NCBI GenBank assembly: GCA_038210455.1
Contig: JBBQWP010000019.1
Span: 40,622-104,621 of the forward strand
Length of the DNA stretch: 64,000 bases
Direction of reading: 5' to 3'
Source of the DNA: Pyrinomonadales bacterium
GTDB lineage: Bacteria > Acidobacteriota > Blastocatellia > Pyrinomonadales > Pyrinomonadaceae
Shown here: positions 1,938 to 56,222 of the stretch, in pieces
Layout: each line of letters starts with the position of its first letter
Numbering within the stretch: position 1 is the stretch's first letter
Made by a program: the position numbers and the translations under genes
Notes under the pieces: model-generated
Seen by the model: only the letters and a program-made list of their open reading frames with translations
What the model was told of the DNA's origin: nothing
The model's database searches: none

Positions 1938-2098
1938 GCTCCGTCAGGAGCGAAGTGTTTATAGAACCTGGCCTTCAATAGGTTTGAATGAGTCTCCTTT
2001 AGGAGCGACACATAGAATCAGCAAACGTTTCGCTCCTAAAGGAGCTTCAACTCGATGCTTGATGATGTGAACTATAAACATTTGGCTCCTGACGGAGC
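1938..2098. repeat. Nested palindromic MITE/REP-like element, family A copy 1 (GCTCC-N4-GGAGC hairpins plus TATAAACA motif)
   Basis: Left end is gctccgtcaggagcgaagtgtttatag and right end is ctataaacatttggctcctgacggagc, near-exact reverse complements. An internal pair ctcctttaggagcg / cgctcctaaaggag lies between them. The same architecture recurs at 27644-27788. Confidence 0.7.
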
Positions 2099-2143
2099 CA
2101 GGAAGTCCCGACTCCATACTTCGCTCGCTTTGCTTTTTAGATT

Positions 2144-5100
2144 ATGAACGTTGCGCGTTTCGTTGATCGGCACCACAAAGCCACCTATCTGGTGGTCGCG
2201 CTCTTGTGCGTCGCTGGTCTCTACAGCGTCTCCCAACTTCCTTCAAGTATTTATCCGGAAGTCGAATTCCCGCGCATCATCGTCGTTGCCGAAGGCGTTC
2301 AACTTGAGCCGCGAAATATGGTGACGGCGATCGCGCGGCCGCTCGAGGATGCGGTCAGCGCGCTGCAGAACGTTGAAGTGGTGCGCGTAACTTCCCGAGC
2401 GGTGCGGGGCTCGTGCCAGGTCTCAATTCAGTTTGCGCCCAGCACTGATATGGAATTGGCGCTACAACTGGTGCAGGCCAAACTCAACCAGGTACAGGCC
2501 GACTTGCCTCCAGGAATTACGCTCGATGTGCAGCGTCTCACTCCTTCCGTCTTTCCGATCATCAGCTATAACGTGACCGGCGCGCCGCCGGTCGTCCTGC
2601 GCGATCTGGCCACTTATACAATTCGGCCGCGCCTGGCGAGGCTGCCCGGCGTGGCCCAGGCCCGCGTCGAGGGTGGCGATCGGCGCGAGATCGAAGTTAT
2701 CGTGACACCTGCCAGACTGGCCGCCAATCACCTCGCCGTCGGTCAAATAGAGGACGCCATCGCGCAGACCAGCGCGGTCACCTCTGTAGGCCGGGTCAGC
2801 CGTGACTATCAGCAATACAACGTTTTGGCCACAGGTGAAGCGCTCTCGCTCGACGACGTGCGGCGCATCGTCGTGTCCACGCCGAGCTCGACGAAAACAA
2901 AATCGCAAGACAATGGCGCCGACCGCGCGCCAATCCACGTGGGCGACGTGGCCGAGGTCAAGTATGGCTCGGAAGATCGAATCAGCATGTTCACCGGCGA
3001 TGGCGTGCCGGCGGCGCTGGTCAGCGTCACGCGGCAAATCGGCGGCAACACCGTCGACATCGCCGACGAAGTTGATCAAGCCATCGCCGATCTGCAACCC
3101 CAACTACCGCGCGGAGTAAAAGTCGAACGCGTCTACAACCAGGCGGCGTTTGTGCGCGCGTCAATTGCGAACGTGCGCGACGCAATTTTGATCGGCGGCT
3201 TTCTGGCCGTGGTTGTTCTGCTCGCCTTTCTGGGCCACCTGCGGATCACAATCATTGCCGCCACTACGATTCCGCTCACCGTAGTCATCACTTTCTTTTT
3301 CATGCGGGTGTTCGGCCAGACTTTTAACCTGATGAGCCTGGGCGGCATCGCTGTGGCCATCGGTTTGGTGATCGACGACGCGGTGGTAGTCGTTGAGAAC
3401 ATCGAGCGGCACCTGCGTCGCCGCACCGTCGAGGGCCGCCGCGATGCGATTTATGGCAGTGTCGGCGAGCTGATGGCCGCCGTGATCGGATCAACGATCA
3501 CCACGGTTGTGGTGTTCCTGCCGCTCGTCCTGCTCGAAGGCGTCACGGGCCAATTCTTCAGCGCGCTTTCCGTCGCGTTGACGGTCTCGGTGCTGGTTTC
3601 GCTAGTGCTGGCGTTGACGTTGATTCCGTTACTGGCTGATCGTTTTCTGCCGAAGGACGTCGCGGCAGGGCTGGTCCCTGCGCCGCTGGTCGAAACCGGC
3701 GTGTCCCTGGGAGATAGAGACGACTACCGCATTGAACCTGAAGACGAAGCCGGCGCGCTGGTCGAAGTCGATCCACGGCACGGGTTCATGTATCGCATTC
3801 AAAAATTCCTGGGCGGAATTGAACAACTGTACACGCAGGCACTCGATCTGGTGTTCGCGCATCGCCGCCTGGCTTTGCTGGCGACGCTAATCATGGTTGT
3901 GATCGGCGCCTTCATCTACACGCGTGTCGAAACGGGCTTTCTACCTGAGATGGACGAAGGCGGTTTCGTGGTTGACTATCGCTTGCCGCCGGGAACCTCG
4001 CTGGCTGAAACAAATAAGGTCATCTCGCAAATCGAACAAATACTGAAAGAGACGCCTGAGGTGGCTGCTTACTCACGCCGGACTGGATCGCAGCTCGGAT
4101 TTTTTGCCACGGAACAAAATGAAGGGGATATCCTGGTCCGGCTCAAAGACACTCGCAGCCGCGACTCGGATGAAATCGTGGACGACCTGCGCTCGGAGAT
4201 CGAAAAACGTTTTCCGCAGGCCCACGCCGAATTTGTAAAACTCCTTGAAGACGTCATCAACGATCTGGCGGGCGAACCACGCCCGGTCGAAGTAAAATTG
4301 TTCGGCGATGATCTCAAGGTCCTGCAACGAACGGCCGCCGAATTGGGCTCTCAGATCGAGAAGATTCCCGGCATCGTTGAACTCTACAACGGCGTCAGTG
4401 CAGGTTCGCCGGAGTTGGTCGCGCGCATCGACCCGGTGCGCGCCGGGCGCGCGGGCCTGACAGTCCAGGCGATTTCGACGCAGCTCAACGATGCTTTGCT
4501 GGGCAAGCGCGTTACCCAGATACGCCAGGGTGATCGTTTGGTCGGCGTGCGCGTGCGCCTGCCCGACGAAACGCGTTTCGACTTTGAGAAGATCAACAAC
4601 GTTCCAATCACGACGCCCAGTGGTCTCACTCAACCGCTCTCAGCTTTCGCTGAGATTCAGCGCGAAGCCGGACAGAGTGAGCTCGTCCGTCAGGATCAGC
4701 GACAAATGGTAGCAATTACCGCCGGCCTGAGCGGCCGCGGCCTGGGGTCGGTCACCAGCGATGTCCGTGCGATCCTGAACAAAGCGAACCTGCCACTGGG
4801 GGTTACTTATCAACTCGGTGGTCAGTATGAAAGTCAGCAGACGGCCTTTCGCGGATTGCTGACGGTGTTTGGGTTGGCGCTGGCGTTGGTCTTCATCGTG
4901 CTCGTGATTCAGTTTCGATCTTATCTCAAGCCGCTGATCATTCTTTTCGCCGCGCCGGTATCGCTGGTGGGCGCGCTGGCTGCGCTATGGGTCACGCGCA
5001 CCCCGCTCAACATTTCCTCGTTCATGGGCTTGATCATGCTGCTTGGCCTGGTGGTTAAAAACGGCATCATCCTGCTGGACTATACCGACCGGCTGCGCGC

Positions 5101-5395
5101 AGAGCGTGACATGCCGCTGGCCGGCGCGTTGCGCGAGGCGGGCCGCGTGCGTCTGCGTCCGATTCTGATGACGACGCTGTGTACGATCTTCGGGCTGGCG
5201 CCGCTGGCGATCGGCCTGGGCGCCGGCGCCGAACTGCAACGCCCGCTGGCCATCGCGGTCATCGGCGGACTTACGCTTTCAACTTTCATTACGCTGCTGG
5301 TGATGCCCACGCTCGCGTTGGAACTTGAAAGACTTGGGTCTCGCAAACTTTTTTCGCGTTGGGCTTATTACAAAAAGCGTGGAGTAGAAACATGA
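2144..5395 (+). CDS. Efflux RND transporter permease subunit (AcrB/CzcA superfamily)
   Basis: 1083-aa ORF with the typical N-terminus (FVDRHHKATYLVVALL...PSSIYPEVEFPRIIV), two large periplasmic loops and 12-TM architecture, and the conserved GLVIDDAVVVVENIERH segment. Confidence 0.93.
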   Translation: MNVARFVDRHHKATYLVVALLCVAGLYSVSQLPSSIYPEVEFPRIIVVAEGVQLEPRNMVTAIARPLEDAVSALQNVEVVRVTSRAVRGSCQVSIQFAPSTDMELALQLVQAKLNQVQADLPPGITLDVQRLTPSVFPIISYNVTGAPPVVLRDLATYTIRPRLARLPGVAQARVEGGDRREIEVIVTPARLAANHLAVGQIEDAIAQTSAVTSVGRVSRDYQQYNVLATGEALSLDDVRRIVVSTPSSTKTKSQDNGADRAPIHVGDVAEVKYGSEDRISMFTGDGVPAALVSVTRQIGGNTVDIADEVDQAIADLQPQLPRGVKVERVYNQAAFVRASIANVRDAILIGGFLAVVVLLAFLGHLRITIIAATTIPLTVVITFFFMRVFGQTFNLMSLGGIAVAIGLVIDDAVVVVENIERHLRRRTVEGRRDAIYGSVGELMAAVIGSTITTVVVFLPLVLLEGVTGQFFSALSVALTVSVLVSLVLALTLIPLLADRFLPKDVAAGLVPAPLVETGVSLGDRDDYRIEPEDEAGALVEVDPRHGFMYRIQKFLGGIEQLYTQALDLVFAHRRLALLATLIMVVIGAFIYTRVETGFLPEMDEGGFVVDYRLPPGTSLAETNKVISQIEQILKETPEVAAYSRRTGSQLGFFATEQNEGDILVRLKDTRSRDSDEIVDDLRSEIEKRFPQAHAEFVKLLEDVINDLAGEPRPVEVKLFGDDLKVLQRTAAELGSQIEKIPGIVELYNGVSAGSPELVARIDPVRAGRAGLTVQAISTQLNDALLGKRVTQIRQGDRLVGVRVRLPDETRFDFEKINNVPITTPSGLTQPLSAFAEIQREAGQSELVRQDQRQMVAITAGLSGRGLGSVTSDVRAILNKANLPLGVTYQLGGQYESQQTAFRGLLTVFGLALALVFIVLVIQFRSYLKPLIILFAAPVSLVGALAALWVTRTPLNISSFMGLIMLLGLVVKNGIILLDYTDRLRAERDMPLAGALREAGRVRLRPILMTTLCTIFGLAPLAIGLGAGAELQRPLAIAVIGGLTLSTFITLLVMPTLALELERLGSRKLFSRWAYYKKRGVET

Positions 5396-5495
5396 GAAGT
5401 AACAGAACATCGCCTTGCCTCTTCGCCATGGTCCTTTTTGCCATTCTTTTTATTTCGGCCTCCTTCAGCGTTCAGGGTTGTCACCGAAATGGTTT

Positions 5496-5691
5496 AGGCC
5501 CGAAGGGCCGGCATTCAATAGCCATGCCCGTCAGGGCGTGGGTGAGTAACCTCAATCCACCTGAGGCCCGAAGGGCCGGCACTCCATTCCTCAACCACTT
5601 TGTTTCGCACCTGCGGCGCTGATTCGCGTTTCAAGGTTCTTGATCCACGCCCTGACGGGCGTGGCTATTGAATTCCGGCCCTTCGGGCCTC
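5496..5691. repeat. MITE-like element with 46-bp terminal inverted repeats (AGGCCCGAAGGGCCGGC...GCCCGTCAGGGCGTGG)
   Basis: Bases 5496-5541 and 5646-5691 are near-perfect reverse complements. A third partial arm (aggcccgaagggccggcactcc) lies at about 5564-5585. Confidence 0.7.
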
Positions 5692-5696
5692 TGATC

Positions 5697-7091
5697 ATGT
5701 TCGATTCAGTTCGCACGCGATTAACTTTCTGGTACGCCGGCGTGCTGGCGCTGTCGCTGATCGTGTTTGCGGTGCTCGTTTACTACGCGGCCGCCAGTAT
5801 CTTCTATGCGCGCCAGGACGAGTTGCTGCGTTCGACCGCCGAAACGGTCGCCAGCGCGTACGTGCAGGAGTTGGACGAAGAGCAATCCGTGGAGAAGGCG
5901 AACGATGTGGTGTTGGCCCAGATGATCTTTCCGAATCGCTTCGTCGAAGTTGTCGACACCGATGGCCACGTCGTCGCGTGGTCGAGCAATCTTGCCAGTC
6001 GTCAGTTCACGGTGCCCGCGCCGGCGCTCAGCGAAGCACGTCAACGCGGCAGTAGCCTGTTCGGCTTGAATAATCTGCGGGTCGCGGTCGTGCCTTTGTC
6101 ACCGAATCGCAGCACCCAACTCGGGTTCGCGATCGTCGCTGAGCCTCTCAGCGTGATCGAAGAAGGCCTCAGACGTTTGCGGCGCTATTTCCTGGCCGGC
6201 GTTCCTGTGGTCATGCTGCTCGCTTCGTTGGGAGGTTACTTTCTCGCGCGCAAGAGTCTTTCACCAATCGCGCTGATGAATCAGCAGACCCAGCGGATTA
6301 CGGCGGAAAATCTTTCCGCTCAGCTTGATGTGGCAAACCCGCGCGATGAAGTAGGCCGTCTGGCGCTGACTATCAACGCGCTCCTGGCGCGACTGGATGC
6401 GGCTTTCCAGGAGCAGCAACGATTCATCGCGGATGCTTCCCATGAGCTGCGGACGCCGTTGGCGGTCCTGCGTGGTGAAACGGAAGTTGCGCTGCAACAG
6501 GAGCGCGCCACGCCTGAATACAAAGAGTCCCTGGCTATGATCAAGGACGAAGCTGAGCGCCTGTCGCGGATAGTCGAGAATCTTTTCCTGCTCGCGCGTC
6601 AACCTGTCGATGCCGCGTCGATGGTTAGAGACACAGTGCGGCTGGATGCCCTCGTCGCTGACTGTGCCCGCGCGGCACAAGTGCTGGCTGCGCAGAAAGG
6701 ATTGCAGCTGAACATCGGCGGCGAGCTCCTGGCGATAACCGTGAACGGCGATGACGAGATGCTTAAGCGAATGCTGCTGAACCTGCTCGACAACGCCGTG
6801 AAGTACACGCCCGCCGGCGGCGAGATCAGCATCGCGCTGCGATCGCAAAACGGAGATGCGCGCATCGTCGTGACGGACAACGGCACCGGTATCCCGGCTG
6901 AGGACCAGCCGCGCATCTTTGATCGTTTTTATCGGGTCGACAAGACGCGTTCACGCGCTTTGGGTGGCGCCGGTCTGGGTCTGTCGATCGCGCGGTGGAT
7001 CGCCGAAGGCCACGGCGGATCGCTTTCGGTCGAGAGCGCTCCGGGTGAGGGAAGCGCGTTTACAGTAGAGTTGCCTCTAAAGGATTCCTAG
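5697..7091 (+). CDS. Two-component sensor histidine kinase (TM-sensor-TM-HAMP-HisKA-HATPase)
   Basis: H-box ADASHELRTPLAVLRG, N-box LLDNAVKYTP and G-boxes DNGTGIP / GGAGLGLSIARWI. I moved the start from 5640 to ATG 5697 because 5640-5691 is the right arm of the palindromic element. No response regulator is adjacent. Confidence 0.9.
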   Translation: MFDSVRTRLTFWYAGVLALSLIVFAVLVYYAAASIFYARQDELLRSTAETVASAYVQELDEEQSVEKANDVVLAQMIFPNRFVEVVDTDGHVVAWSSNLASRQFTVPAPALSEARQRGSSLFGLNNLRVAVVPLSPNRSTQLGFAIVAEPLSVIEEGLRRLRRYFLAGVPVVMLLASLGGYFLARKSLSPIALMNQQTQRITAENLSAQLDVANPRDEVGRLALTINALLARLDAAFQEQQRFIADASHELRTPLAVLRGETEVALQQERATPEYKESLAMIKDEAERLSRIVENLFLLARQPVDAASMVRDTVRLDALVADCARAAQVLAAQKGLQLNIGGELLAITVNGDDEMLKRMLLNLLDNAVKYTPAGGEISIALRSQNGDARIVVTDNGTGIPAEDQPRIFDRFYRVDKTRSRALGGAGLGLSIARWIAEGHGGSLSVESAPGEGSAFTVELPLKDS

Positions 7092-7179
7092 AGTTGCCAC
7101 ATCAAGGTCAACGCAGTTATGAAACCCCAACAACCCGGATCGTATTCTGCCCACTGCCCACCTGCCCCACTGCCTACTG

Positions 7180-7578
7180 TCATCCCTGAATCTTCCGCAG
7201 GCGATCAATAAACTTACCGTCGCTGAATTGTGCGGCGCCGGCTTTGGTTAGGCGGGCGAGCTCATTGAATAACTTCTCGTCCACCTCTTTAAAGTTAAAG
7301 CATGACTTGCCCTGCATACGCTTCTTCAATTTGGGCGACATGCTCTGCAACAAATCGGGACAAGCGTAAATCGACATCAGATAGAAGCTGACATACGCTT
7401 TGCCCAACCGCACGCCGCCAAAGCAAAGCGGCTGTTTATTCTTCATGATGTGCCGTGTGTTCAGCAGATAGTAAGTCTGGCTGTCATGGGTGACATCCAT
7501 CTTCTTTACGTAGGGTTGTAAAATTGCTTTCAGCCTGGCAAAGACAATATCGAAATCATTGTTGTCCGCCATGTGCAT
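7180..7578 (-). CDS. Small cytoplasmic protein, DUF1801/YdhG-like (tentative)
   Basis: 132-aa ORF in a locally AT-richer stretch. The pattern FARLKAIL...YVSFYL...CFNFKEVDE resembles the DUF1801 family from memory. It lies 18 nt downstream of the gpV-like gene on the same strand. Confidence 0.55.
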   Translation of the reverse strand: MHMADNNDFDIVFARLKAILQPYVKKMDVTHDSQTYYLLNTRHIMKNKQPLCFGGVRLGKAYVSFYLMSIYACPDLLQSMSPKLKKRMQGKSCFNFKEVDEKLFNELARLTKAGAAQFSDGKFIDRLRKIQG

Positions 7579-7596
7579 CTCCCAGACTAATATTTA

Positions 7597-7956
7597 TTAC
7601 TTAGGTTTCAGAGCGGCGGGTGTTTCTGATTGGTTGCTGTAAAAGCAGCCTGACCAGATCGGATGATCAGGATCGCCAGCCTCGAATTCGATCCAGACAT
7701 TTGCTCCGACCTTTGGTAACGAACTGGCTCGAGTTTTTCCCAGGTTGACCGGAGCGCAAGGCATCGCCAGGGTGCTCCCAGTCAGGCCGGAAACTGCCGG
7801 AACTTGCACACGGATGCGTCCCATCTCCAGCGGGTCGCGATTGTCTGTTACCGTGCCGCGGTATTTGCCGAAATATTTTTGGCTGATTCTTCCACCGCCT
7901 TTCTCAGACTCAACGCGAGCAGTCATGGTACCAGTCAATCCGCGCCCAACCAACAT
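7597..7956 (-). CDS. Phage baseplate assembly protein V / gp5-VgrG OB-fold spike-like protein (orphan)
   Basis: GKYRGTVTDNRDPLEMGRIRVQVPAV...LAMPCAP...PKVGANVWIEFEAGDPDHPIWSGCFY matches the gpV/gp5 OB-fold signature (G.V....DP...GR..V..P......WA.P..P......P.VG..V.V.FE.GD...PI..G). ATG at 7926 is an alternative start. Confidence 0.7.
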   Translation of the reverse strand: MLVGRGLTGTMTARVESEKGGGRISQKYFGKYRGTVTDNRDPLEMGRIRVQVPAVSGLTGSTLAMPCAPVNLGKTRASSLPKVGANVWIEFEAGDPDHPIWSGCFYSNQSETPAALKPK

Positions 7957-23627: not shown

Positions 23628-23740
23628 TACAGAACCGCTCGCGGTAGCGAGCGGGTTAAGGACCCAACTTCGCTCAAGGGAGCGCAAAGCGAGTTTCGGT
23701 TGATGCTTTCTAATCCCGCTCCCCACCGGTCGCGGTTCTC
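23628..23740. repeat. Nested palindromic element, family C (core GCGGTAGCGAGCGGGT)
   Basis: cagaaccgctcgcggtagcgagcgggtta ... aatcccgctccccaccggtcgcggttctc form imperfect inverted ends. Related cores occur at 36777-36954 and 56101-56222. Confidence 0.6.
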
Positions 23741-23959
23741 TAGCTTGACAAAGATTACGGCGCCAGCTAGCTTCGTTTTTCGCGTTAATGTTCTTTGCAA
23801 TTCTTAAAGTAGAGGCGCGGCCTTCAAGACTAGCCGAGTCAGAGAACCCGAAGAGTTCTGTGACGACTCGGTCGAAAGGGAAGGTCGCCGAAGCTCGAGC
23901 GGGCGTCTTCAGGCACGACGAGTTGGTTGCTGTGGCTAAATCCGCAGGACTGTCATCTA

Positions 23960-24019
23960 GTGGCACAGACTTCAGTCTGTGATTTCATGGAAGCTATCAC
24001 AGACTGAAGTCTGTGCCAC
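23960..24019. repeat. Double palindrome, family D (GTGGCACAGACTNNAGTCTGTGA)
   Basis: gtggcacagacttcagtctgtga-tttcatggaagcta-tcacagactgaagtctgtgccac. Each half is itself an 18-bp palindrome (CACAGACT-NN-AGTCTGTG). A second full copy is at 58705-58767. Confidence 0.75.
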
Positions 24020-24121
24020 GGGTGGAGAGCTACGACACGGGCGCCGGATGTTTTACGGCGCAAAAGTTTCTCGAGATTGAGGGGCCAGTCGTATGCTTTG
24101 CGATTGGCCCTTTTTGTTTAT

Positions 24122-24214
24122 GGAGTGCGGCGGCAAGCGCAGCGCGACGCCGCTTTGGATCAGCCGGCAAGAAATCCAAAGCGCCGTCGCCGCTTCGCTC
24201 TGTCGGCGCACTCC
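24122..24214. repeat. Imperfect inverted repeat abutting the lysC start codon
   Basis: ggagtgcggcggcaagcgcagcgcgacgccgctttgga ... tccaaagcgccgtcgccgcttcgctctgtcggcgcactcc. The right arm ends 4 nt before ATG 24219. Confidence 0.6.
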
Positions 24215-26690: not shown

Positions 26691-26894
26691 GCGAAGCGGA
26701 CGGAAGAAAATAGCCCAGGTTGAAGTGAGCGTAGCGAACGAAACCCTGGGTTGCGATGCCAACAATTGTTAGAGCCCGCTTTAGCGGGCGATAGAATCTG
26801 TCGCCCGCTAAAGCGGAAATCTTCTTGGGGGGGTGATCCCAGGGTCCCGCGCTTCGCGCTCCCCCTGGGCTATTATCTGTCATCCGCTTTGCGG
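26691..26894. repeat. Nested palindromic MITE-like element in the dapE-like/dapB spacer
   Basis: Outer ends gcgaagcggacggaagaaaatagcccagg / cctgggctattatctgtcatccgctttgcgg are imperfect reverse complements. Inner hairpins gcccgctttagcgggc and tcgcccgctaaagcgg. Confidence 0.6.
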
Positions 26895-26903: not shown

Positions 26904-27653
26904 ATGGTTCAAATCAGGTTGTGGCCAAGAGAAGGAAACTCAATTTTGAAAATAGGCCTAATCGGATACGGCGCCATGGGTCAACTCGTCGGCAAGCTGG
27001 CGAGCGAGCAGGGCCATGAGGTCGTGCTCAAACTCGACCTTGAAGATGCTGCTCGCAATGTCGACGATCTTGCCGAGACGTTGCGCGCCTGCGAAGTGGC
27101 CATCGACTTTTCCGTTGCTGACATGATCCCGAAGAATGCCGAAGCCTGCGCTCGCGCCGGAGTGCCGCTGGTGGTGGGCACAACCGGCTGGCAGTCTCGC
27201 GTCGCTGACGTGCAACGCATCGTGACTGAACACGACGGCGCGCTGATCTATGGTGCGAACTTTTCGGTGGGCGTGCAGGTCTTCTATCGGATCGCCGCGC
27301 GCGCCGCCGAGTTGTTTCGGGGACTTGAATCCTACGACGCTTTCATTGAAGAGGCCCACCATAAGCGAAAGCGTGATGCGCCATCCGGGACAGCCGTGCA
27401 ATTGCGGGACGTCGTCGCCTCGGATCTCGGTCGCGAAGTTCCGGTGACCTCAACGCGCGCTGGATACATTCCGGGCACGCATCGTCTTGGGTTTGATTCG
27501 GTGGCGGATCAAATCACGCTGACGCACACGGCCCGGTCCCGCGAAGGATTTGCCGCCGGAGCTCTGGTCGCCGCCCGTTGGATCGTTGGCCGCAAAGGCG
27601 TCTATGAATTCTCGGAAGTGTTTGATGAGATTATCGGAAGTTCGCTCCGTTAG
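26904..27653 (+). CDS. dapB: 4-hydroxy-tetrahydrodipicolinate reductase
   Basis: KIGLIGYGAMGQ dinucleotide fold and the EAHHKRKRDAPSGTA signature. The true start may be the TTG at 26946. The last codons and stop lie inside repeat element 27644-27788. Confidence 0.9.
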   Translation: MVQIRLWPREGNSILKIGLIGYGAMGQLVGKLASEQGHEVVLKLDLEDAARNVDDLAETLRACEVAIDFSVADMIPKNAEACARAGVPLVVGTTGWQSRVADVQRIVTEHDGALIYGANFSVGVQVFYRIAARAAELFRGLESYDAFIEEAHHKRKRDAPSGTAVQLRDVVASDLGREVPVTSTRAGYIPGTHRLGFDSVADQITLTHTARSREGFAAGALVAARWIVGRKGVYEFSEVFDEIIGSSLR

Positions 27654-27788
27654 GAGCGAAATGTTTATAGCACCGTGGTTTCTTTTCTATTCGTCAGCTC
27701 CTTTAGGAGCGGCATATATGTTTCGCTCCTCCGGAGCTAAGAATCAAACTGGTCGATGGGGCTATAAATATTGCGCTCCTAACGGAGC
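27644..27788. repeat. Nested palindromic MITE/REP-like element, family A copy 2
   Basis: gctccgttaggagcgaaatgtttatag ... ctataaatattgcgctcctaacggagc, with an internal gctcctttaggagc / gctcctccggagc. Same architecture as 1938-2098. Confidence 0.7.
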
Positions 27789-28756: not shown

Positions 28757-28840
28757 GTCAGTACCACCTGCGGTAGCGGGTGGGCCATAGCTCAATCCAC
28801 ATACTCAAAGGCCCACCCGCTACCGCGGATGGTACTGACC
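28757..28840. repeat. Hairpin element, family B copy 1 (GTCAGTACCACCTGCGGTAGCGGGTGGGCC)
   Basis: gtcagtaccacctgcggtagcgggtgggcc-(loop)-ggcccacccgctaccgcggatggtactgac. It fills the dapA-dapD spacer, from 2 nt after the dapA stop to 2 nt before the dapD ATG. Confidence 0.8.
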
Positions 28841-31477: not shown

Positions 31478-32551
31478 ATGACCGACTCAACGAACAGAAA
31501 GCTTCGCGCAGGTATTTTGGGTGCGACCGGTGTGGTAGGCCAGCGTTTTATTCAACTGCTGGCGGATCATCCGCAGTTTGAAATCAGCGCGCTGGCCGCG
31601 TCCGATCGTTCACAAGGCAAAACATATGCGGCCGCCTGCACCTGGCGTCTGCCGGGTGAAATGCCCGAGCGCGTGAAAGAGATCGTCGTGCAGTCGCCGG
31701 CGCCTCCCCTGGATTGTGATTTCGTGTTTTCGAGTCTTCCCGGCGAAGTTGCCGGCGACGCGGAAGAGAGTTTTGCGCGCGCCGGGTACCCGGTCATTAC
31801 CAATTCCTCGTCGCATCGCATGGGCGCGGACGTGCCGCTGTTGATTCCCGAAGTAAACCCGGAACATCTCGATCTAATAGCCGCGCAGCGCGCCACACGC
31901 GGATACGGACGCGGCTACATCGTCACTAATCCGAATTGCTCGACGATTGTAATTGCGATGGCCCTGGCGCCGCTGCACCGGAAATTCGGCGTGGAGTCGT
32001 GCATCGCAACTACCATGCAGGCGATCTCGGGAGCAGGTTATCCTGGCGTGCCTTCGCTGGACATTACCGACAATGTCTTGCCATTCATCGGCGGTGAAGA
32101 GGAAAAGATCGAGAGCGAGACCGTGAAGATTCTCGGTCAGGTCGAAGGATCGACGATCAAAGGAGCGGCGATGAAGGTCAGCGCACAATGCAACCGGGTG
32201 AATGTGATCGACGGTCACCTCGCCGCGATGCGGGTGAAGCTTTCCCACGCCGCGCCGCTTGATCGAGTTCGCGCAGCGCTCGCTTCATTCAGTTCATTGC
32301 CACAGGAGCTGAAACTGCATTCAGCGCCGGCGCGGCCGATCATTGTGCGGGACGAAGTCGATCGCCCACAGCCGCGCCTGGATCGCGATGCGGGGAATGG
32401 CATGAGCGTAACTGTCGGACGAATCGCGGCCGACGCGGTGCTCGACTATCGTTTTGTGGCGCTGGGTCATAACACGATTCGGGGCGCAGCGGGCGCGGCA
32501 ATTTTGAACGCTGAGCTGTTGGTAGCGCGTGGGTATATCAAGGGGCAGTAG
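31478..32551 (+). CDS. asd: Aspartate-semialdehyde dehydrogenase
   Basis: KLRAGILGATGVVGQRF, active-site NPNCSTI, and AISGAGY. The start is trimmed from 31409 to ATG 31478 because the upstream extension is repeat-encoded. Confidence 0.92.
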   Translation: MTDSTNRKLRAGILGATGVVGQRFIQLLADHPQFEISALAASDRSQGKTYAAACTWRLPGEMPERVKEIVVQSPAPPLDCDFVFSSLPGEVAGDAEESFARAGYPVITNSSSHRMGADVPLLIPEVNPEHLDLIAAQRATRGYGRGYIVTNPNCSTIVIAMALAPLHRKFGVESCIATTMQAISGAGYPGVPSLDITDNVLPFIGGEEEKIESETVKILGQVEGSTIKGAAMKVSAQCNRVNVIDGHLAAMRVKLSHAAPLDRVRAALASFSSLPQELKLHSAPARPIIVRDEVDRPQPRLDRDAGNGMSVTVGRIAADAVLDYRFVALGHNTIRGAAGAAILNAELLVARGYIKGQ

Positions 32552-32575
32552 CCCGACATCCCAGGTGAGGCTATC

Positions 32576-32745
32576 TACCGCGAAGCGGTTCCGACCTCCG
32601 GCCCAGGGTTGCCGCCGCGGCTACCCTGGGTATCTGAATTAATCCGTCTCAACCCCGATGGGGTTGCGTCCTCTTTCATGCGCCGATACCCAACGTAGCC
32701 GCCAAGCGGCAACGTTGGGCTGGAGGTCCCAACCGCTTCGCGGTA
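32576..32745. repeat. Nested palindromic MITE-like element (outer TIR TACCGCGAAGCGGTTCCGACCTCC)
   Basis: taccgcgaagcggttccgacctcc ... ggaggtcccaaccgcttcgcggta form the outer TIRs. The inner pair is gcccagggttgccgccgcggctaccctgggtatc / gatacccaacgtagccgccaagcggcaacgttgggc. Confidence 0.7.
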
Positions 32746-33248: not shown

Positions 33249-33329
33249 GGGGCAGTAGCCCGACCGTCAGGGAGGGCTCCATTGACATAGGATCACTTTG
33301 AGCCCTCCCTTACGGTCGGGCTACTGCCC
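33249..33329. repeat. Hairpin element, family E (GCCCGACCGTCAGGGAGGGC)
   Basis: ggggcagtagcccgaccgtcagggagggctc-(loop)-gagccctcccttacggtcgggctactgccc. It overlaps the 3' end of the hydrolase gene. A half copy is at 397-418 and a related copy at 33966-34046. Confidence 0.75.
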
Positions 33330-33965: not shown

Positions 33966-34046
33966 GGGGTACTAGCCCGGCCGTCAGGAAGATCTCAGTC
34001 TTCCTCGCCTCTAACTGATGAGCCCTCCCTCATGGTGGGCTAGTGC
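33966..34046. repeat. Hairpin element related to family E
   Basis: ggggtactagcccggccgtcagg ... gagccctccctcatggtgggctagtgcc. Confidence 0.55.
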
Positions 34047-36776: not shown

Positions 36777-36954
36777 GTCAGTACCGAGAGCGTAGCGACC
36801 GGGTCGCCTTGCTGTCCGCATTAGATAGCAGCCACAGATTCACACGGATCAGCACAGATCAGAAACCACTTAACCGCGTAATGTCCTTATCCGTGTGAAT
36901 CTGTGGCGCCGATCTAGTGCGGACAGCGTAAGAGAAGACCCGGTCGCTACTGAC
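36777..36954. repeat. Triple-nested palindromic element (family C-related outer arms)
   Basis: Outer pair gtcagtaccgagagcgtagcgaccgggtc / gacccggtcgctactgac. Middle pair gctgtccgcattagat / atctagtgcggacagc. Inner pair ccacagattcacacggat / atccgtgtgaatctgtgg. Confidence 0.7.
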
Positions 36955-38860: not shown

Positions 38861-38968
38861 CTTGGAATCTGGTGCCTCCGGCGTTTTATCTTTCGTCAGT
38901 CCAACTCGGAACCGATACTAACAGCGCGGCGCGTAGTAGCATAGACTTCAGTCTGTGAATTTCACCGA

Positions 38969-40417
38969 ATGATGCGAGCAGATAAAGAAAAGGCCGGAGG
39001 TGGATCTTCAGATAGTGTCGCGGGCGTCCCGCCTGTGAATCACGCGCAAGATGCGCGTGCCACCTCCATCACTCGCGTTGAAGTCGTGCTCTTCCTTTTC
39101 CTATGGCTCGGTTACGGAGCGGCGATCAACTCCGACAACCTGGTCAACTTCAACTTGCAGCAGATCGGCGTCGAAGCGATCGTCGAACGCCATCAGTTCT
39201 ATCTGGAAGGCTCATCTGCTCCCGAATTGTTTCCTCAAGGCGATGTGTTCTTGTATCAGGGTCATAAGTACGCGGCCAAGCAGCCCGGTCAGTCAATGGT
39301 GGGCGCGGTAGTGTATTGGGTTCTGCGCGCCCTCGGTTTGCGATACGCGGACAATTACCTGCTGACTTCCGCGCTGGTCACTTTCTTTACTACTTCGCTC
39401 GTTCTGGCGGCGTCCGCGGTTGCGGTCTTCGGGATTTCTCGAAAACTTACAGCAGACGCGCAGGCGCTCTGCTGGCCAATACTGACGACGTTCGCCTACG
39501 CCCTCGCGACAACTGTCTTTGCCTACTCAGGGATCGCACACCACGATGCGCTCGCGACCGGCTATCTCGCGATCGCGTTCTATCTGATTTTCGATCTACC
39601 CCGCGCCGGTTGGGACGGGCGTGCGGAGATTTTCAAGTCAGCAGCCGCCGGGTTGCTGCTCGGTCTCGCTATGACGACATCGATGCTCGTCTTCTTTATG
39701 GTGATTGTCTGCGCGCTTTACTTCCTTTGGCTGTGGCGCTGGAGGTTAATCCCATTCTTTCTGGTAGCAATCCTACTTGGCTTGCTGCCTCTCTTTATCT
39801 ACAACGCGCAAAGTTTTGGCAGCCCATTCCTGCTGCCGAATGTAGTCGGCGCACAGATGTTCTCTGACACTTTCTTTCACTTCAGCGCGAGGAATTTCGG
39901 CAATAAGCTGGTCTGGTACTCGACTATGTTGGTCGTTTATGTGCCGATCGTTCTGGCCGGATTATTTGGCTTGTCGTATTACCCGCTGGCAGTGAAGCGC
40001 ACGCCGTTTTTTCTCGCACTGGTGGCGATGTTGGTCGTGCTGGCGGCCTACATCCTGAACATCAAAACCGGAGGAGATTGTCAATTCGGGCCGCGCTACC
40101 TGCTGCCGGCAATGCCTTTTGCCTGTCTGGGGATCGCCGGTTACAGCTATCTCTCGACTAACGTCGAGCGGCGGGTGGCGGGTGTGATCGTTTTGGTGTC
40201 AGGTGTGGTTTCGTTTGCGATAAACCTGGTGGGTGCCCTGTCTGGTGCGATGTGTTGTCCCGACGGAAGTAATGCATTGCGCAATCAGTTGACGCGACTC
40301 GCGGGAGGCGACGTGCCTCACTTTCCACTGGCGCCGTGGCTGATCGCCCCGCTCTTAATCTGTGCAGCGTTGTTTGTCTGGACCGGCGGCAAAATGAGGT
40401 CAGTACCACCCGCGTGA
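38969..40417 (+). CDS. Polytopic membrane protein, GT-C-like (tentative)
   Basis: 482 aa with at least 10 predicted TM helices. The early loop YQGHKYAAKQPGQSMVGAVVY resembles the PMT_2-type loop. The last codons lie inside repeat 40398-40489. Confidence 0.55.
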   Translation: MMRADKEKAGGGSSDSVAGVPPVNHAQDARATSITRVEVVLFLFLWLGYGAAINSDNLVNFNLQQIGVEAIVERHQFYLEGSSAPELFPQGDVFLYQGHKYAAKQPGQSMVGAVVYWVLRALGLRYADNYLLTSALVTFFTTSLVLAASAVAVFGISRKLTADAQALCWPILTTFAYALATTVFAYSGIAHHDALATGYLAIAFYLIFDLPRAGWDGRAEIFKSAAAGLLLGLAMTTSMLVFFMVIVCALYFLWLWRWRLIPFFLVAILLGLLPLFIYNAQSFGSPFLLPNVVGAQMFSDTFFHFSARNFGNKLVWYSTMLVVYVPIVLAGLFGLSYYPLAVKRTPFFLALVAMLVVLAAYILNIKTGGDCQFGPRYLLPAMPFACLGIAGYSYLSTNVERRVAGVIVLVSGVVSFAINLVGALSGAMCCPDGSNALRNQLTRLAGGDVPHFPLAPWLIAPLLICAALFVWTGGKMRSVPPA

Positions 40418-40489
40418 GCGGGTGGGTCTTGCACTCAACAATCGCTGATCGAGTGCTGGATCCACCCGCTCACGCGGGTGGTACTGACC
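40398..40489. repeat. Hairpin element, family B variant (GGTCAGTACCACCCGCGTGAGCGGGTGG)
   Basis: ggtcagtaccacccgcgtgagcgggtgggtc-(loop)-gatccacccgctcacgcgggtggtactgacc. Confidence 0.75.
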
Positions 40490-45294: not shown

Positions 45295-45349
45295 TGGCGC
45301 CGATTCAGAGGCGCTGAACAGCAAGGGTGCCGCGTAGCGGCATCGTGAA

Positions 45350-45495
45350 TTTAGCCCGGCGTTTCAACGCCGGGAAATAGTCGGGTGACGTTCGTTCGTC
45401 GCATAGCGACGTTTGAACTCACATCTTTCAGACGTCGCTACGCGACGTGCACGTTCTTGCTGAACTCATCCCCGGCGTTGAAACGCCGGGCTAAA
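45350..45495. repeat. Nested palindromic MITE-like element (TIR TTTAGCCCGGCGTTTCAACGCCGGG)
   Basis: tttagcccggcgtttcaacgccggg ... ccccggcgttgaaacgccgggctaaa form the outer TIRs. The inner pair is cgtcgcatagcgacgtttgaa / ttcagacgtcgctacgcgacg. Confidence 0.7.
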
Positions 45496-46334: not shown

Positions 46335-46421
46335 GGTCAGTACCACCTGCGGTAGCGGGTGGGCCAAAGCCTTAACACACATTGACCAATGGCCCACCCG
46401 CTACCGCAGGTTGTACTGACC
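46335..46421. repeat. Hairpin element, family B copy 2
   Basis: ggtcagtaccacctgcggtagcgggtgggcc-(loop)-ggcccacccgctaccgcaggttgtactgacc. The arms are almost identical to 28757-28840. Confidence 0.8.
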
Positions 46422-49718: not shown

Positions 49719-49817
49719 CAGTGATTCCTCCCTATTCTTCTATCGGTAGCCAGACCTTAGTCTGTGATTAATTTTCAGAGCGAGCTCGCATCTCAAATTG
49801 AAGTCCCGGCCCCATAA

Positions 49818-52088: not shown

Positions 52089-53101
52089 CGATCCTCGTGC
52101 GGCGCCGCGGCGGTCTGTTCATGATTCGCGGCCTCATCGCCAACGCGCACACCCAGGCCGGTGCGCATTTCGTCAGTTAGCACCTGCAACTGATATTCAA
52201 ACTCTTGTGAGCGGCGCGCAATTGAATGCAGTACGAGCCCGACGGTGAGCGAGAGCAGCCCGCACAACATCAGGCCCACCGCCAGCACGGCCAGCGGCAG
52301 ACGAGCAGCGATGCCTCGATGAATCGAGTCGATGATCGAAAAGAGACCGGGAACCAGCGCCATTACAAGCAGCGCGATCCCGACGCTGCCAAAGAAGGTC
52401 AAAGGCTTATAATCACGAAAGAGGGCCAGAATCGTGTTGAGAATAAGCGCGCCGTCACGAACAAACTTGATCTTCGAATGGCTGCCCGCGGGCCTGGACG
52501 TCAACGTCGTGGGAACTTCCACAATGCGCATGCCGCGCGCAACAGCCTTGATCGTAAGTTCAGTTTCAATCTCGAATCCGCCGCCGAATAAGGGCAGTCC
52601 CTTAACAAACCTCCGGTTGAAGGCTCGATAGCCCGAAAGAATATCAGTCAGCCTGACTTTGAAGATCGAGTTTAGTAGCGCGAGTACGAGACGGTTGGCC
52701 CAGCGGTTCAGTTGGCGAAATTCACTTTGGGTGGCCACGTGCAGGCGCGAACCAACTACCATGTCGGCCTCGTCCGCAATGACCGGCGCTAACAGGCGAT
52801 GAACCTCAGCGGCCGGATAAGTGCCGTCGCCATCAACCATGATGTAGACGTCGGCTTCCACGCGGCGGAACATCGACTGCACCACGTAGCCTTTCCCCTG
52901 TCGCGGTTCGCGCAGGACGGTTGCGCCCGCTGCCAGCGCGCCGGCCACTGTGCCATCCGTCGAGTTGTTGTCGAAAACGTAAATGTGCGCCGCGGGCAAC
53001 TCGGCGCGAAAGGCCTGGACCACTTCACCAACTGTCGGCGCCTCGTTGTAGCAGGGGATTAAGACAGCGACCCTCGGCGATGTGTCTGCGGTTGATTCCA
53101 T
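52082..53101 (-). CDS. GT2 polyprenyl-phosphate glycosyltransferase (GtrB/ArnC/DPM1-like)
   Basis: VAVLIPCYNEAPTVGEVV, a DGDGTYP-type motif (VDGDGTY), and two C-terminal TM helices as in GtrB/ArnC. Confidence 0.85.
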   Translation of the reverse strand: MESTADTSPRVAVLIPCYNEAPTVGEVVQAFRAELPAAHIYVFDNNSTDGTVAGALAAGATVLREPRQGKGYVVQSMFRRVEADVYIMVDGDGTYPAAEVHRLLAPVIADEADMVVGSRLHVATQSEFRQLNRWANRLVLALLNSIFKVRLTDILSGYRAFNRRFVKGLPLFGGGFEIETELTIKAVARGMRIVEVPTTLTSRPAGSHSKIKFVRDGALILNTILALFRDYKPLTFFGSVGIALLVMALVPGLFSIIDSIHRGIAARLPLAVLAVGLMLCGLLSLTVGLVLHSIARRSQEFEYQLQVLTDEMRTGLGVRVGDEAANHEQTAAAPHEDRC

Positions 53102-53423
53102 CTGAGTGATCGGCAGCGGCTTAGTTTAAATTTCTGTGCGCCCCGCGTGCTCGGCGTTTCTGCGGTGAATGCTCTTACGGCATTCTATTCACCGGAGAGA
53201 CGCCGCGGCATCACGCAGGGAAAAGCTTAATTTAAGGCACCGCCGATAAGTTAAGTTCTTGACATCCGCTTGTTCAGACCAACACAATGCCCGACTCAAA
53301 GTAGTGGGGGCAGCGACGCGCTATGTCGAGCTGTTTTCGGTCCGTTGTGCGATTAGCACCGCCGATCCGTAGCGAAACCGGGCTCCTGAAAAAGAGCCTA
53401 ACGCTAACACTGCGCGCACCAAA

Positions 53424-56093
53424 ATGACAACTTCGGTCACAAACTCACCCAACACTTCGATAGGCCGCGAAACTCGAGGCGGCGGTGAAACCAGTGCGAT
53501 CCCGGCCCTGGTTAGACGACTTGGCCGGTTGAGTCTGGTGCGCGAGCTTTCGGTCATCTTTGTCTTCACTCTGTTTACGACTTTGCTGACCTGGCCCTAC
53601 GTAACCCGCATAAAGGACGTGGTCGTCGACACGGGCGATCCATATCTTATGACGTGGATTCTTTGGTGGGACTATCACCAGACATTCACCGACCCGCTGC
53701 ACCTCTTCAATGCAAACGTCTTTTATCCACTGAAATATACGCTGGCCCTCAGCGAGCACAGCTATGGATTGGCTTTGCTTCTCTTTCCGCTCTATGCGCT
53801 TGGCCTGAAGCCGCTCACGGTTCACGCCGTGGCTTTGCTGTTCGCTTTTCCGCTCACTGGCTACGCTGCTTTTCGCCTGGGCCGAACGCTCACCGGCTCG
53901 ACGGCGGTCGGATGGGTGACTGGGATTATCTTCGCGTTTGTTCCGGCCCGCTTTAATCTCATGTCCCAGGTGATCTATGTGTTCTCGCCATGGATACCGT
54001 TGTTGTTTGAAGCGCTGGTGCTATTTGTGCGCGAGCGGAGCCGGAGGCACGCGGTGTGGCTGGGCTGCGCTTTCTTTATGAGCGGTCTGACGACGATCTC
54101 CTGGTTCAGCTTTTCGCTGTTACCGTTTGTGCTGGTGGCGGCCATTTTGTTAACGCGCTACGGCCTTTGGCGCGAGCGCGCGTTCTGGCGGCGCGGCGCC
54201 GTTGCGCTCGGCGCGGCGACGCTGTTGTTACTTCCATTTTTTCTGCCGTACTTTGCCGTGGCGCGTCTGTATGGATTTAAGCGGAGCATCGAGGAGATCA
54301 AAGCCAATTCCGCCTGGCCAATACACTGGTTGTCAGTTGAGCCGCGCAACAAACTCTGGAGCCGGATGGGCGAACCCATTACCGATGGCTGGAGATTCAA
54401 ACTCTTCCCGGGTCTGCTGCCGATTGGCTTTTCGTTGACGGCGATGTTGATGCCGCGCGCTGCCCGAAAGCTGACGCTGATTCCCGATGCACAGGCGTCT
54501 CAGAAGCGATGGCTTCGTCTGCTCGACGCTTTGATCCTTTTTTCGTTTGCGCTTTCAATCCCGGCCATTGGTTTGGATCGGTCGGACGCGCTTTGGGGAG
54601 TGTTCAGTTACGCCACGTCAGAGCTGGTGCTCGGCCTGCTGATGTTGGTGGTTGTCGCGCGGCTGTGTGTCGCGTATCCGCAGTTCATGCTTACGGCCCA
54701 CGCGAACCTGATCGAGACTCTTCGTTCCCAGCGGCGCAGCGACGCCTTTTGGCTCGGACTACTTTTGACCGTCATCGGGTTCTGTTATTCGCTGGGTTGG
54801 AACTTTTTCTTCTATCGCCTCTGTTACGACTTGCTCCCAATGTTCAAGAGTATGCGCGTTGCCACTCGAGGGGCGATGATGGCCTATCTGGGTTTGGCGC
54901 TCTTGTCAGGTCTGGGGGTGAAGCGCCTGGCCGAAGTGCTGCCGCTGCGATTTCCGCGGCTGCGAGCGAGTATGGTTACTGGAGTCGCCTGCGTCTTGTT
55001 GCTGGCTGAGTTGAACGCCGCGCCTCTGAGCATCGTGCGCGGCGAGTCGCGGCCGGACGCAGTAACGCTGAGACTGAAACAGACGCCGATGCGCGGAGGG
55101 ATCGTCGAGCTTCCTGCGGGTGGGAATCTCAACTATCGCTATATGCTGCGGGCTGCCGATCATCAGAAGCCACTGATCGTCGGCACGTCGGGATTCAACT
55201 CGCCGATCGAAGATCAGATCGAGGCATTGACACGGACTGGAGCCATTCCGGCCGAGCTGATGACCATGCTCGAAGCAATTCCAACTTCGTACCTGGTGAT
55301 TTGCAACCAATCGATCATGCCTGAGCGAACGGCCGACTATGAAGCCTTCCTGGCGCGGGCAGTTGCCGGCGGTCGCTTGCGTTTCATTAATCGTTTCGAT
55401 GGACGCGACGATCTGTACGCAGTCGTGAAGAACGAACCTGAAGCGAAGAGTGAGGCGGCGCTGCCGTTCGGTCTGACGAACCAGGACTGGGCGACGAAGA
55501 TTCACGACGATCCCGTCAGTCTTTTGAGCCAACCGCTCAACTGGAGTCAAAGACTCTACCGAATCCATCTGGCAAGTTCTGGCGCCATGCCGCGTCAGAA
55601 AGAGTTCATGAGCGACCTGGAAAAGATCGGACAGGGAATCATCGTTGGATCTGAAGGAGAGGAGCAACAGGTCGCCGCAAATTTCCGTGAGTTTGTGGAA
55701 GGCTGGACAAAGCGCGAACAGTTCATCAAGTCTTTCAGTCAACTCGACGATACGCAATATGTAAATCGTCTGATCGAGAATGCCGGAATCAGCGTGGACG
55801 CGGCCAGCCGCGAGACGTTGGTAAGCGGATTATCGAGCGGCAGCGACACTCGCGCGAGTGTGTTGCTGAAGATTGTGGACGATCCGCGCTTAATCGAGAA
55901 AGAGAAGTATCGCTCACTGCTGTTGCTGCATTATTTTGGCTATTTACGCCGAAACCCCGACGATCCGCCCGACGGCGATCTGCGAGGATTCAATTTTTGG
56001 CTTCAGGATTTGGAGCGCCATCACGATGCGAGGGATCTCTCGAACGCGTTTAGAGTCACGGGTGAGTATGGTCAGTACGAAAAGAAACCGTGA
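53424..56093 (+). CDS. Polytopic membrane protein (GT-C-like N-terminal half) with large soluble C-terminal region ending in a DUF4214-like module
   Basis: 889 aa. The first loop is GDPYLMTWILWWDYHQ...NANVFYPLKYTLALSEH. Multiple TM helices. The C-terminus is LLLLHYFGYLRRNPDDPPDGDLRGFNFWLQDL. Confidence 0.7.
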   Translation: MTTSVTNSPNTSIGRETRGGGETSAIPALVRRLGRLSLVRELSVIFVFTLFTTLLTWPYVTRIKDVVVDTGDPYLMTWILWWDYHQTFTDPLHLFNANVFYPLKYTLALSEHSYGLALLLFPLYALGLKPLTVHAVALLFAFPLTGYAAFRLGRTLTGSTAVGWVTGIIFAFVPARFNLMSQVIYVFSPWIPLLFEALVLFVRERSRRHAVWLGCAFFMSGLTTISWFSFSLLPFVLVAAILLTRYGLWRERAFWRRGAVALGAATLLLLPFFLPYFAVARLYGFKRSIEEIKANSAWPIHWLSVEPRNKLWSRMGEPITDGWRFKLFPGLLPIGFSLTAMLMPRAARKLTLIPDAQASQKRWLRLLDALILFSFALSIPAIGLDRSDALWGVFSYATSELVLGLLMLVVVARLCVAYPQFMLTAHANLIETLRSQRRSDAFWLGLLLTVIGFCYSLGWNFFFYRLCYDLLPMFKSMRVATRGAMMAYLGLALLSGLGVKRLAEVLPLRFPRLRASMVTGVACVLLLAELNAAPLSIVRGESRPDAVTLRLKQTPMRGGIVELPAGGNLNYRYMLRAADHQKPLIVGTSGFNSPIEDQIEALTRTGAIPAELMTMLEAIPTSYLVICNQSIMPERTADYEAFLARAVAGGRLRFINRFDGRDDLYAVVKNEPEAKSEAALPFGLTNQDWATKIHDDPVSLLSQPLNWSQRLYRIHLASSGAMPRQKEFMSDLEKIGQGIIVGSEGEEQQVAANFREFVEGWTKREQFIKSFSQLDDTQYVNRLIENAGISVDAASRETLVSGLSSGSDTRASVLLKIVDDPRLIEKEKYRSLLLLHYFGYLRRNPDDPPDGDLRGFNFWLQDLERHHDARDLSNAFRVTGEYGQYEKKP

Positions 56094-56100
56094 TGGTTGT

Positions 56101-56222
56101 TACAGAACCGGGAGCGGTAGCGACCGGGTGCTACATTCAATTTACGATTTTCAGTTTTGTCAGAAAGAAACCTAGAACAAAGTTGACTCTAGCACCCGGT
56201 TTCTACCGCTCCCGGTTCTGTA
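56101..56222. repeat. Nested palindromic element, family C
   Basis: tacagaaccgggagcggtagcgaccgggtgcta ... tagcacccggtttctaccgctcccggttctgta. Confidence 0.75.

Follow-up and report, generated by a model that had tools for sequence, protein, structure and literature searches.

The 64,000-nucleotide stretch of Pyrinomonadales DNA analyzed here (the window; C19:40622-104621 of a 5.3-Mb draft genome of 79 contigs that is 93.6% complete) has a G+C content of 53-61% and carries, in its spacers and at the ends of its genes, short palindromic units that are dispersed through the genome in many copies. The closest public relatives of one of the encoded proteins come from metagenome-assembled genomes of Pyrinomonadaceae (Acidobacteriota, Blastocatellia), and we take the organism for an uncultured soil bacterium of this family. 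We propose, with a probability of about 85%, that these elements are REPINs (repetitive extragenic palindromic, REP, doublets forming hairpins; also described as bacterial interspersed mosaic elements, BIMEs), non-autonomous repeats partnered by genes for Y1/HUH enzymes that resemble RAYTs (REP-associated tyrosine transposases) or TnpA-REP and are located elsewhere in the chromosome. The proposal is carried by the structure and copy numbers of the elements, by the pairing of repeat families with Y1 genes, by the predicted HUH fold of one enzyme class, by the absence of target-site duplications and by the turnover of spacer occupancy between species.

De novo repeat discovery, in which 14-mers occurring at least six times were merged into intervals and these were clustered by BLAST, yielded 1,256 repeat intervals of 40-400 bp, together 127 kb or 2.4% of the genome. 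They form 44 clusters, of which 25 have ten members or more, and nearly all cluster representatives have a long palindromic fold. A preliminary description of the window had listed 16 palindromic elements and taken them for members of repeat families, which the clustering confirmed: all 16 fold as strong hairpins and all recur in the genome, at about 2-7 near-full-length loci (36777, 26691, 32576 and 5496) to more than 100 (23960 and 33249). The units are paired in inverted orientation, the doublet giving a long hairpin, as is evident from the folds and from the Acido-Lenti-1 doublets discussed below.

With RNA parameters the minimum free energies of the 16 elements range from −34 to −128 kcal/mol. 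When the DNA folds of 11 elements were scored against 200 dinucleotide-preserving shuffles each, nine had z values of −7.0 to −14.0, no shuffle being as stable; the weaker folds belong to 33966-34046 (z −2.3) and 23628-23740 (z −3.7), both visibly decayed. The palindromes often extend 3-4 nucleotides past the ends first noted, e.g., ATGA/GGTCAGTACC...GGTACTGACC/TCAT. That nearly every spacer of more than 80 bp is occupied was overstated: counted on a crude gene map, 15-17 of the 27 spacers of at least 80 bp (about 60%) hold an element, and the eight that lie from 7 to 23 kb are all vacant.

Pairing of repeat families with Y1/HUH genes

A profile search with PF01797 found 18 Y1 genes in the genome, all of them outside the window; the earlier statement that the window contains no RAYT thus holds for PF01797, the window not having been screened for other transposase families. 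The 18 genes fall into three sequence classes, in which the HUH and Tyr motifs are present and most frames are intact. The largest group comprises ten proteins of about 150 amino acids (DHVH ... WQEGYGAF ... YIxNQxxHH), one of them encoded by a pseudogene, which score above the cut-off of the NCBIfam IS200 model and whose Y---Q--HH signature is that of subclass 1.2 (PMC6006769). Five proteins of 170-250 amino acids (PNHxHLL ... Y..NNPVKAGL) have the classical RAYT signature (Y---NP) and are referred to as class 2; against NF047646 (cut-off 80 bits) they reach 62.5-93.4 bits, two of the four tested lying above the cut-off. The remaining three proteins, of about 170 amino acids (TNHVH ... AIEYV..GQG), match both NCBIfam models only weakly and are assigned to class 3 from their motifs only. 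The NCBIfam names given to the Y1 proteins are IS200 or REP-associated tyrosine transposase. Congeners have 5-28 Y1 matches apiece.

Because its sequence is so divergent, a class-3 protein was modeled from 43 homologues (predicted local distance difference test, pLDDT, 86; predicted template-modeling score, pTM, 0.80). A sequence search of the Protein Data Bank (PDB) with this protein gave spurious matches only; the 30 best PDB fold matches of the model are all TnpA of IS200, IS608 or ISDra2 or the TnpA-REP of E. coli (4er8), which argues for a genuine HUH/Y1 fold of the predicted structure.

Fifteen of the 18 Y1 genes are bracketed by inverted repeat copies about 100 nucleotides or less from the frame. 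Counting for each family the dispersed members that match both flanks of a given Y1 gene gave 12 family-gene pairings (Table 1), with a partner for all five largest families; these families are thus no orphans, their RAYT-like genes lying elsewhere in the genome. Nearly every Y1 gene lies between inverted copies of one family, and a REPIN doublet is therefore in effect a Y1 cassette minus the gene; the nested architecture of the elements mirrors the multi-hairpin flanks of the Y1 genes. The two partner genes of F7 are 85.6% identical in nucleotide sequence. Because the similarity runs beyond the cassette into the neighboring segment, the pair reads as an old segmental duplication, and a jump in the manner of an insertion sequence (IS) was rejected for it.

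The class-3 pairing extends beyond this genome. At least 568 relatives of the class-3 proteins were found in a collection of species-representative genomes, and 61 of 64 class-3 loci with full flanks from other Pyrinomonadaceae and Acidobacteriota assemblies have the inverted core GTCAG[TA]ACC-stem-GCGNNAGC-stem, the stem of which co-varies among taxa (CCACCTGC/GCGGGTGG, CCGCCTGC/GCGGGCGG and CCATCCGC/GCGGATGG). The same unit is carried by families B and C of the preliminary description, in which a shared core had been noted; the two are indeed related, being paralogous versions of the class-3 unit with the GCGGTAGCG core. In REPtrons a conserved tetranucleotide at the hairpin foot, GTAG or another, guides cleavage; candidate motifs here are CAGTAG in F1, CTGA on the other strand in F4 and F5, and TAGCC between the hairpins of subclass-1.2 units.

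Acido-Lenti-1 was proposed in 2010 to be a non-coding RNA (Weinberg et al., PMC2864571) and is filed by Rfam (RF01687) as a small RNA (sRNA) gene of unknown function. Both outer arms of 5496-5691 match it, at 5496-5541 (−) with 45.6 bits and at 5645-5690 (+) with 51.7 bits, and of the 119 matches in the genome 50 lie above the gathering threshold (37 bits). All 32 adjacent pairs are oriented (−,+), with no (+,−) pair; 30 pairs, among them that of 5496-5691, are doublets spaced 17-145 nucleotides, and the other two, about 550 nucleotides apart, enclose the subclass-1.2 genes C15_58025 and C2_99188. Matches also flank C22_14359. Beyond this genome, 20 loci that hold a homologue of C15_58025 were taken from other genera and families of acidobacteria, and ten of them had RF01687 matches of the same polarity about 120 nucleotides or less from the gene ends. 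On this evidence Acido-Lenti-1, in contrast to its Rfam entry, behaves as a DNA repeat (inverted doublets, Y1 flanks) and would be the REP unit of the subclass-1.2 enzymes; the strict (−,+) pairing and the flanking of Y1 genes argue against an RNA gene.

On the model of E. coli TnpA-REP, IS608 and ISDra2, each enzyme would recognize its own hairpin on single-stranded DNA, cut a short motif at the foot of the hairpin and rejoin the strand elsewhere, the target not being duplicated. Copies would persist at sites where they do little harm: spacers within and between operons, the last codons of genes and a tolerant riboswitch loop.

Turnover between species and alternative explanations

The lysine/diaminopimelate (DAP) operon at about 26-34 kb is syntenic in many congeners, 13 of which were fetched for a comparison of spacers. 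Between g3 and dapD, the window and six further species have an F4 doublet, two species have F2 together with F33, one has F9 and another F7; in L033 this spacer is empty, 8 bp (TGACCATG) leading from stop to start, and L026 and L028 have no such spacer whatever. The spacer between dapB and g3 is occupied by F7 in two genomes, by F10 in at least three, and by little or nothing in others; in L026 (G001:C49) runs of N cover most of the g1-dapB and dapB-g3 spacers and make occupancy there unreadable. These comparisons show repeated gain and loss of elements while the genus radiated. Unrelated families at the same site and true empty sites exclude conserved ancestral terminators, the alternative that a comparison of orthologous spacers was suited to expose.

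A reading as intrinsic terminators is not supported either: terminator-like sites are not enriched (29 versus 20.9 ± 4.9 in shuffles), none of them is a whole REPIN, and the large hairpins are not followed by a T-run, being flanked instead by ATGA/TCAT, TTT/AAA and the like.

At 23-112 full-length copies of five families no target-site duplications were found, the length of direct duplication being 0-1 nucleotide in the great majority of copies. This fits an HUH/Y1 mechanism and not DDE transposition. The preliminary description had spoken of a population like miniature inverted-repeat transposable elements (MITEs) or REPs and BIMEs that is mobilized in trans. A non-autonomous REP/BIME-like population, presumably mobilized in trans, it is; the MITE in the sense of a DDE element with terminal inverted repeats and target-site duplications has to be given up.

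Within families the arms are conserved and the centers and loops drift. Concerted evolution of the arms was looked for and not found, the arms within one element being no closer to each other than those of different elements: in F4, 30 nucleotides of arm differ by 4.6 mismatches within the same element and by 5.2 between different elements, and from the nearest other arm by 1.8 (the corresponding figures for F1 and F6 are unreliable, as indels shift the register). A search for near-identical copies as signs of recent bursts brought up almost none except in F2.

Several observations speak against the proposal that the elements are REPINs served by Y1 enzymes. Nearest full-length neighbors within families share only 79-89% identity, with hardly any identical copies, which therefore points to long-term turnover with no recent burst. 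That the Y1 enzymes are the movers is what we infer, neither a transposition event nor an excision product having been observed, and the cleavage motifs named above for subclass 1.2 and class 3 are candidates, not established sites. The F2 partner C22_266 (class 2; G000 C22:125-883) has Cys at the position of the expected catalytic Tyr of Y..NP (AIVCVENNPVKAG) and may be inactive, its companion C35_3512 (C35:3224-3823) retaining the Tyr, and C6_168854 (C6:168809-169186) is a Y1 pseudogene interrupted by an in-frame TAA. F6, F8, F10, F11, F12, F14, F17, F18 and F24 are without a partner gene in this 93.6%-complete assembly of 79 contigs. Finally, most families have a single partner, but F7, F13 and F2 have two to three each.

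Some of these points would also be expected if the Y1 genes had been domesticated or inactivated and the repeats were relics, decaying rather than actively copied. Most families lack near-identical copies, the elements at 23628 and 33966 are decayed, and the partner genes include a pseudogene and one without the Tyr. We nevertheless consider this explanation unlikely, as the majority of the Y1 genes are intact frames with HUH and Tyr and as occupancy varies among congeners that are about 75-85% identical; insertions and losses therefore continued through the radiation of the genus. Conservation at the ends only is, besides, typical of REPIN populations (bioRxiv 10.1101/2022.05.22.493013).

Less probable still is that the elements are primarily functional structures, at the RNA or DNA level, which the host maintains (sRNAs, terminators, mRNA stabilizers or protein-binding sites) and which spread through duplication or recombination and not through Y1 enzymes. 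REPs of E. coli affect mRNA stability and are bound by the integration host factor (IHF) and gyrase, and arms conserved beside drifting loops indicate a constraint on the arms; moreover, a copy in a riboswitch loop persists in at least nine species, and RF01687 matches exceed the gathering score. But sister species carry unrelated families or nothing in the same spacer, so that no site depends on a particular element, and the exclusively (−,+) orientation of the 32 Acido-Lenti-1 pairs, two of which, like ten of the 20 outside loci, enclose a Y1 gene, would be odd for an RNA gene. The lack of enrichment of terminator-like sites and of T-tails behind the big hairpins also speaks against it. A benefit of the repeats to their host is something that we only infer.

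Classical MITEs, i.e., internally deleted DDE insertion sequences moved via their terminal inverted repeats, can hardly be the answer, although the elements have long terminal inverted repeats without coding capacity and other transposases exist in the genome (e.g., a multi-copy IS110-family element), because target-site duplications are lacking at the full-length copies of five families, because Y1/HUH genes and not DDE genes are what these arms enclose (the genome not having been screened exhaustively for DDE), and because the IS110 element uses F6 as its target and not as its ends.

Elements of the window, a lysine riboswitch and an IS110 target

Table 1. Palindromic elements and riboswitch of the window, and family-gene pairings of the genome (window positions, or contig coordinates where a contig is named; z from DNA folds; n, members of the family).
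Feature	Position	Arms, setting or gene class	Fold	Relatives or matches
REPIN F7 (family A of the preliminary description)	1938-2098	GCTCCGTYAGGAGC hairpin + ATGTTTATAG; second hairpin pair inside	−83 kcal/mol	F7 n=52
REPIN, F13 type	5496-5691	outer arms are RF01687 Acido-Lenti-1 units, (−,+), 103 nt apart
decayed REPIN F11	23628-23740	class-3-type arm TACAGAACCG..GCGGTAGCG	z −3.7	~7 near-full-length relatives; resembles F11 representative
lysine riboswitch aptamer	23802-24040 (+)	upstream of aspartokinase		RF00168, 75 bits
REPIN F3	23960-24019	arms GTGGCACAGACTTCAGTCTGTGA	z −13.1
REPIN F6	24122-24214	TTT/GGAGTGCGGCGGCA...CGCACTCC/AAA	z −7.0	F6 n=58
composite element	26691-26894	outer arms F13/Acido-Lenti-1-related; inner perfect hairpin 26776-26816 = F34	−118 kcal/mol	~4 near-full-length loci
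REPIN F7	27644-27788	spacer downstream of dapB	z −9.8
REPIN F4 (family B of the preliminary description)	28757-28840	exactly the gap from stop codon to next ATG	z −11.0
REPIN F36 (small family)	32576-32745		−117 kcal/mol	~5 near-full-length loci
REPIN F1 (family E of the preliminary description)	33249-33329	arms GGGGCAGTAGCCCGACCGT.AGGGAGGGC	z −10.8
decayed F1 copy	33966-34046		z −2.3	82% match to F1 members
REPIN, F5-type arms	36777-36954	GTCAGTACCG.GAGCG.AGCGACCGGGT; long inner palindrome	−102 kcal/mol
REPIN F4	40398-40489		z −14.0	78 full-length relatives without target-site duplication
REPIN F24	45350-45495	arms Acido-Lenti-1-like, below Rfam threshold	z −11.1	F24 n=13
REPIN F4	46335-46421		z −11.5	clusters with F4
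REPIN F18	56101-56222	class-3-type arm TACAGAACCGGGAGCGGTAGCGACCGGGTG	z −10.5	F18 n=23
perfect F3 REPIN (missed in the preliminary description; k-mer scan)	58704-58767		−48.8 kcal/mol
F1 (n=123): C2_143722	C2:143584-144150	class 3		117/123 match both flanks
F2 (n=113): C22_266, C35_3512		class 2
F3 (n=105): C8_154567	C8:154204-154896	class 2 RAYT		101-102/105 match both flanks
F4 (n=96): C15_29044	C15:28711-29343	class 3
F5 (n=81): C6_12246	C6:12030-12557	class 3		69-70/81 match both flanks
F7 (n=52): C31_59430, C21_986	C31:59325-59804, C21:881-1345	subclass 1.2
F9 (n=36): C9_9037		class 2
F13 (n=32): three genes (~60% amino-acid identity)		subclass 1.2		26-30/32 match both flanks
F15 (n=28): C44_13237		subclass 1.2
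F21 (n=16): C26_66745		class 2
F30: C20_83323		subclass 1.2
F36: pseudogene C6_168854		subclass 1.2		arms of 32576-32745 flank the gene

Some of the elements in Table 1 have further relations. The first 27-28 nucleotides of 26691-26894 match both flanks of the Y1 gene at C2:99095-99562 at 89%. For 45350-45495, an RF01687 match of 31.8 bits lies at 45328-45374 (−), and sequences nearly identical to the F18 arm flank class-3 genes in metagenome-assembled genomes (MAGs) of other Pyrinomonadaceae. Immediately upstream of 32576-32745 is an F1 REP singlet (32542-32560), which had been missed at first, as had singlets at about 400-485 and at 38935-38958.

Several genes run into a repeat arm, from which they take their final codons and their stop (27644-27653, 40398-40417 and 33293-33329); at the first of these sites it is the left arm of 27644-27788 into which the upstream gene runs. 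A cluster of short hairpins at 38925-39070, which includes an F3 half-unit and overlaps the predicted start of the gene at 38969-40417, is k-mer family F8 (n=37), a candidate REP family or else a repeated coding or leader segment.

In the riboswitch the RF00168 model positions 1-182 are stretched over 239 nucleotides by a 61-nucleotide insert in the P5 loop. The F3 REPIN 23960-24019 (60 nucleotides) is located in this terminal loop and lengthens P5. The same insert is found in eight congeners; L152 has a 199-nucleotide aptamer in which no REPIN is recognizable. After the aptamer and before the F6 REPIN follows a terminator-like hairpin with a T-run (24079-24113), probably the riboswitch's expression platform. 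The F6 REPIN itself lies between this hairpin and the coding region of aspartokinase; F6 copies with 80-89% identity are present in all congeners searched.

F6 is also the target of an IS110-family element of 1.4 kb with the Pfam domains DEDD_Tnp_IS110 and Transposase_20 (L160:205-1611; G000 C59:2904-4310). At least 14 copies exist, at least 13 of them at contig ends, and every copy is inserted at one point of the F6 left arm (TTTGGAG/...CATAGCAG/TGCGGYGGCA). Known REP-targeting members of the family include IS621, ISPpu9, ISPpu10 and ISPa11, which share with it the DEDD/IS110-type transposase, the fixed position in a REP-type repeat and the lack of inverted ends, whereas the target here is an acidobacterial REPIN family. 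The 182-nucleotide non-coding 3′ end may encode a putative guide (bridge or seek) RNA; an Rfam scan for a bridge RNA gave no match, and a word search of the non-coding ends against the target gave one shared 6-mer only.

Relation to known systems

To our knowledge, studies of REPIN-RAYT systems have been almost confined to Proteobacteria and to classical RAYTs. The kind of system described here is already known (PMC3733652; PMC6006769; PMC8266576; bioRxiv 10.1101/2022.05.22.493013), and the findings leave the known mechanism unchanged; what sets this instance apart is the number and the class diversity of the systems, the acidobacterial host and the proposed reassignment of Acido-Lenti-1.

With the REPtrons of E. 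coli, Pseudomonas fluorescens and Stenotrophomonas maltophilia the present systems have in common the inverted hairpin doublets, present outside genes in tens to hundreds of copies, the Y1/HUH gene flanked by its own unit with, as a rule, one family per gene, the absence of target-site duplication, the conserved arms with a variable center (described for REPINs in bioRxiv 10.1101/2022.05.22.493013) and the persistence across related species. They differ in that there are at least 12 pairings in one genome, compared with the nine REPIN-RAYT systems that S. maltophilia has as an entire species (bioRxiv 10.1101/2022.05.22.493013), in that classical Y---NP RAYTs make up just five of the 18 enzymes, in that the host is an acidobacterium and not a proteobacterium, and in that the REP units are longer, those of subclass 1.2 being two-hairpin modules of about 46-90 nucleotides. 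Genomes with several RAYTs are known already, and linkage to REPINs had been confined to RAYT groups 2 and 3 (bioRxiv 10.1101/2022.05.22.493013).

Class 3 of the TnpA-Y1 enzymes was described by Quentin et al. (2018) from Acidobacteria and Planctomycetes, with about 600 hairpins in Solibacter (PMC6006769). The Y..Q signature, the host phylum, the high copy number and the atypical flanking hairpins with a CnGA foot (here ...GGTACTGAC) are the same in the present genome, which differs in having three paralogues, each with its own family (F1 123, F4 96 and F5 81 members), and in the CTGC that F1 has in place of CnGA; the fold of the class is here backed by a model. Subclass 1.2 was described as low in copy number, as a rule lacking terminal hairpins, and found mainly in Cyanobacteria or Bacteroidetes (PMC6006769), and Di Nocera et al. 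(2013) reported TIRYT genes of acidobacteria that have inverted flanks, in one case repeated (PMC3733652). The subclass-1.2 genes found here agree with these subclass-1.2 and TIRYT/TIRtron genes in the Y---Q--HH signature, the length of about 150 amino acids, the likeness to IS200 and the flanking inverted repeats with self-complementary tracts; in contrast, there are ten copies in one acidobacterial genome and the two-hairpin flanks are also dispersed as doublets.

We consider it likely that the genus is the richest REPIN-RAYT host described, with at least 12 systems and three Y1/HUH classes in one genome, that subclass 1.2 and class 3, which are outside the RAYT groups linked to REPINs, own its largest families, and that Acido-Lenti-1 serves subclass-1.2 enzymes throughout the Acidobacteriota as their single-strand-DNA REP unit. 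The Rfam sRNA family would then be reclassified as a DNA repeat. Repeats of this kind inflate counts of non-coding RNAs, break the assemblies of MAGs and can furnish genes with their stop codons. The enzymes of class 3 and subclass 1.2, together with the hairpins defined for them, are candidate sequence-specific tools for single-stranded DNA, and a dozen parallel systems with three enzyme classes provide a natural test of hairpin specificity and of the coexistence of repeat populations.

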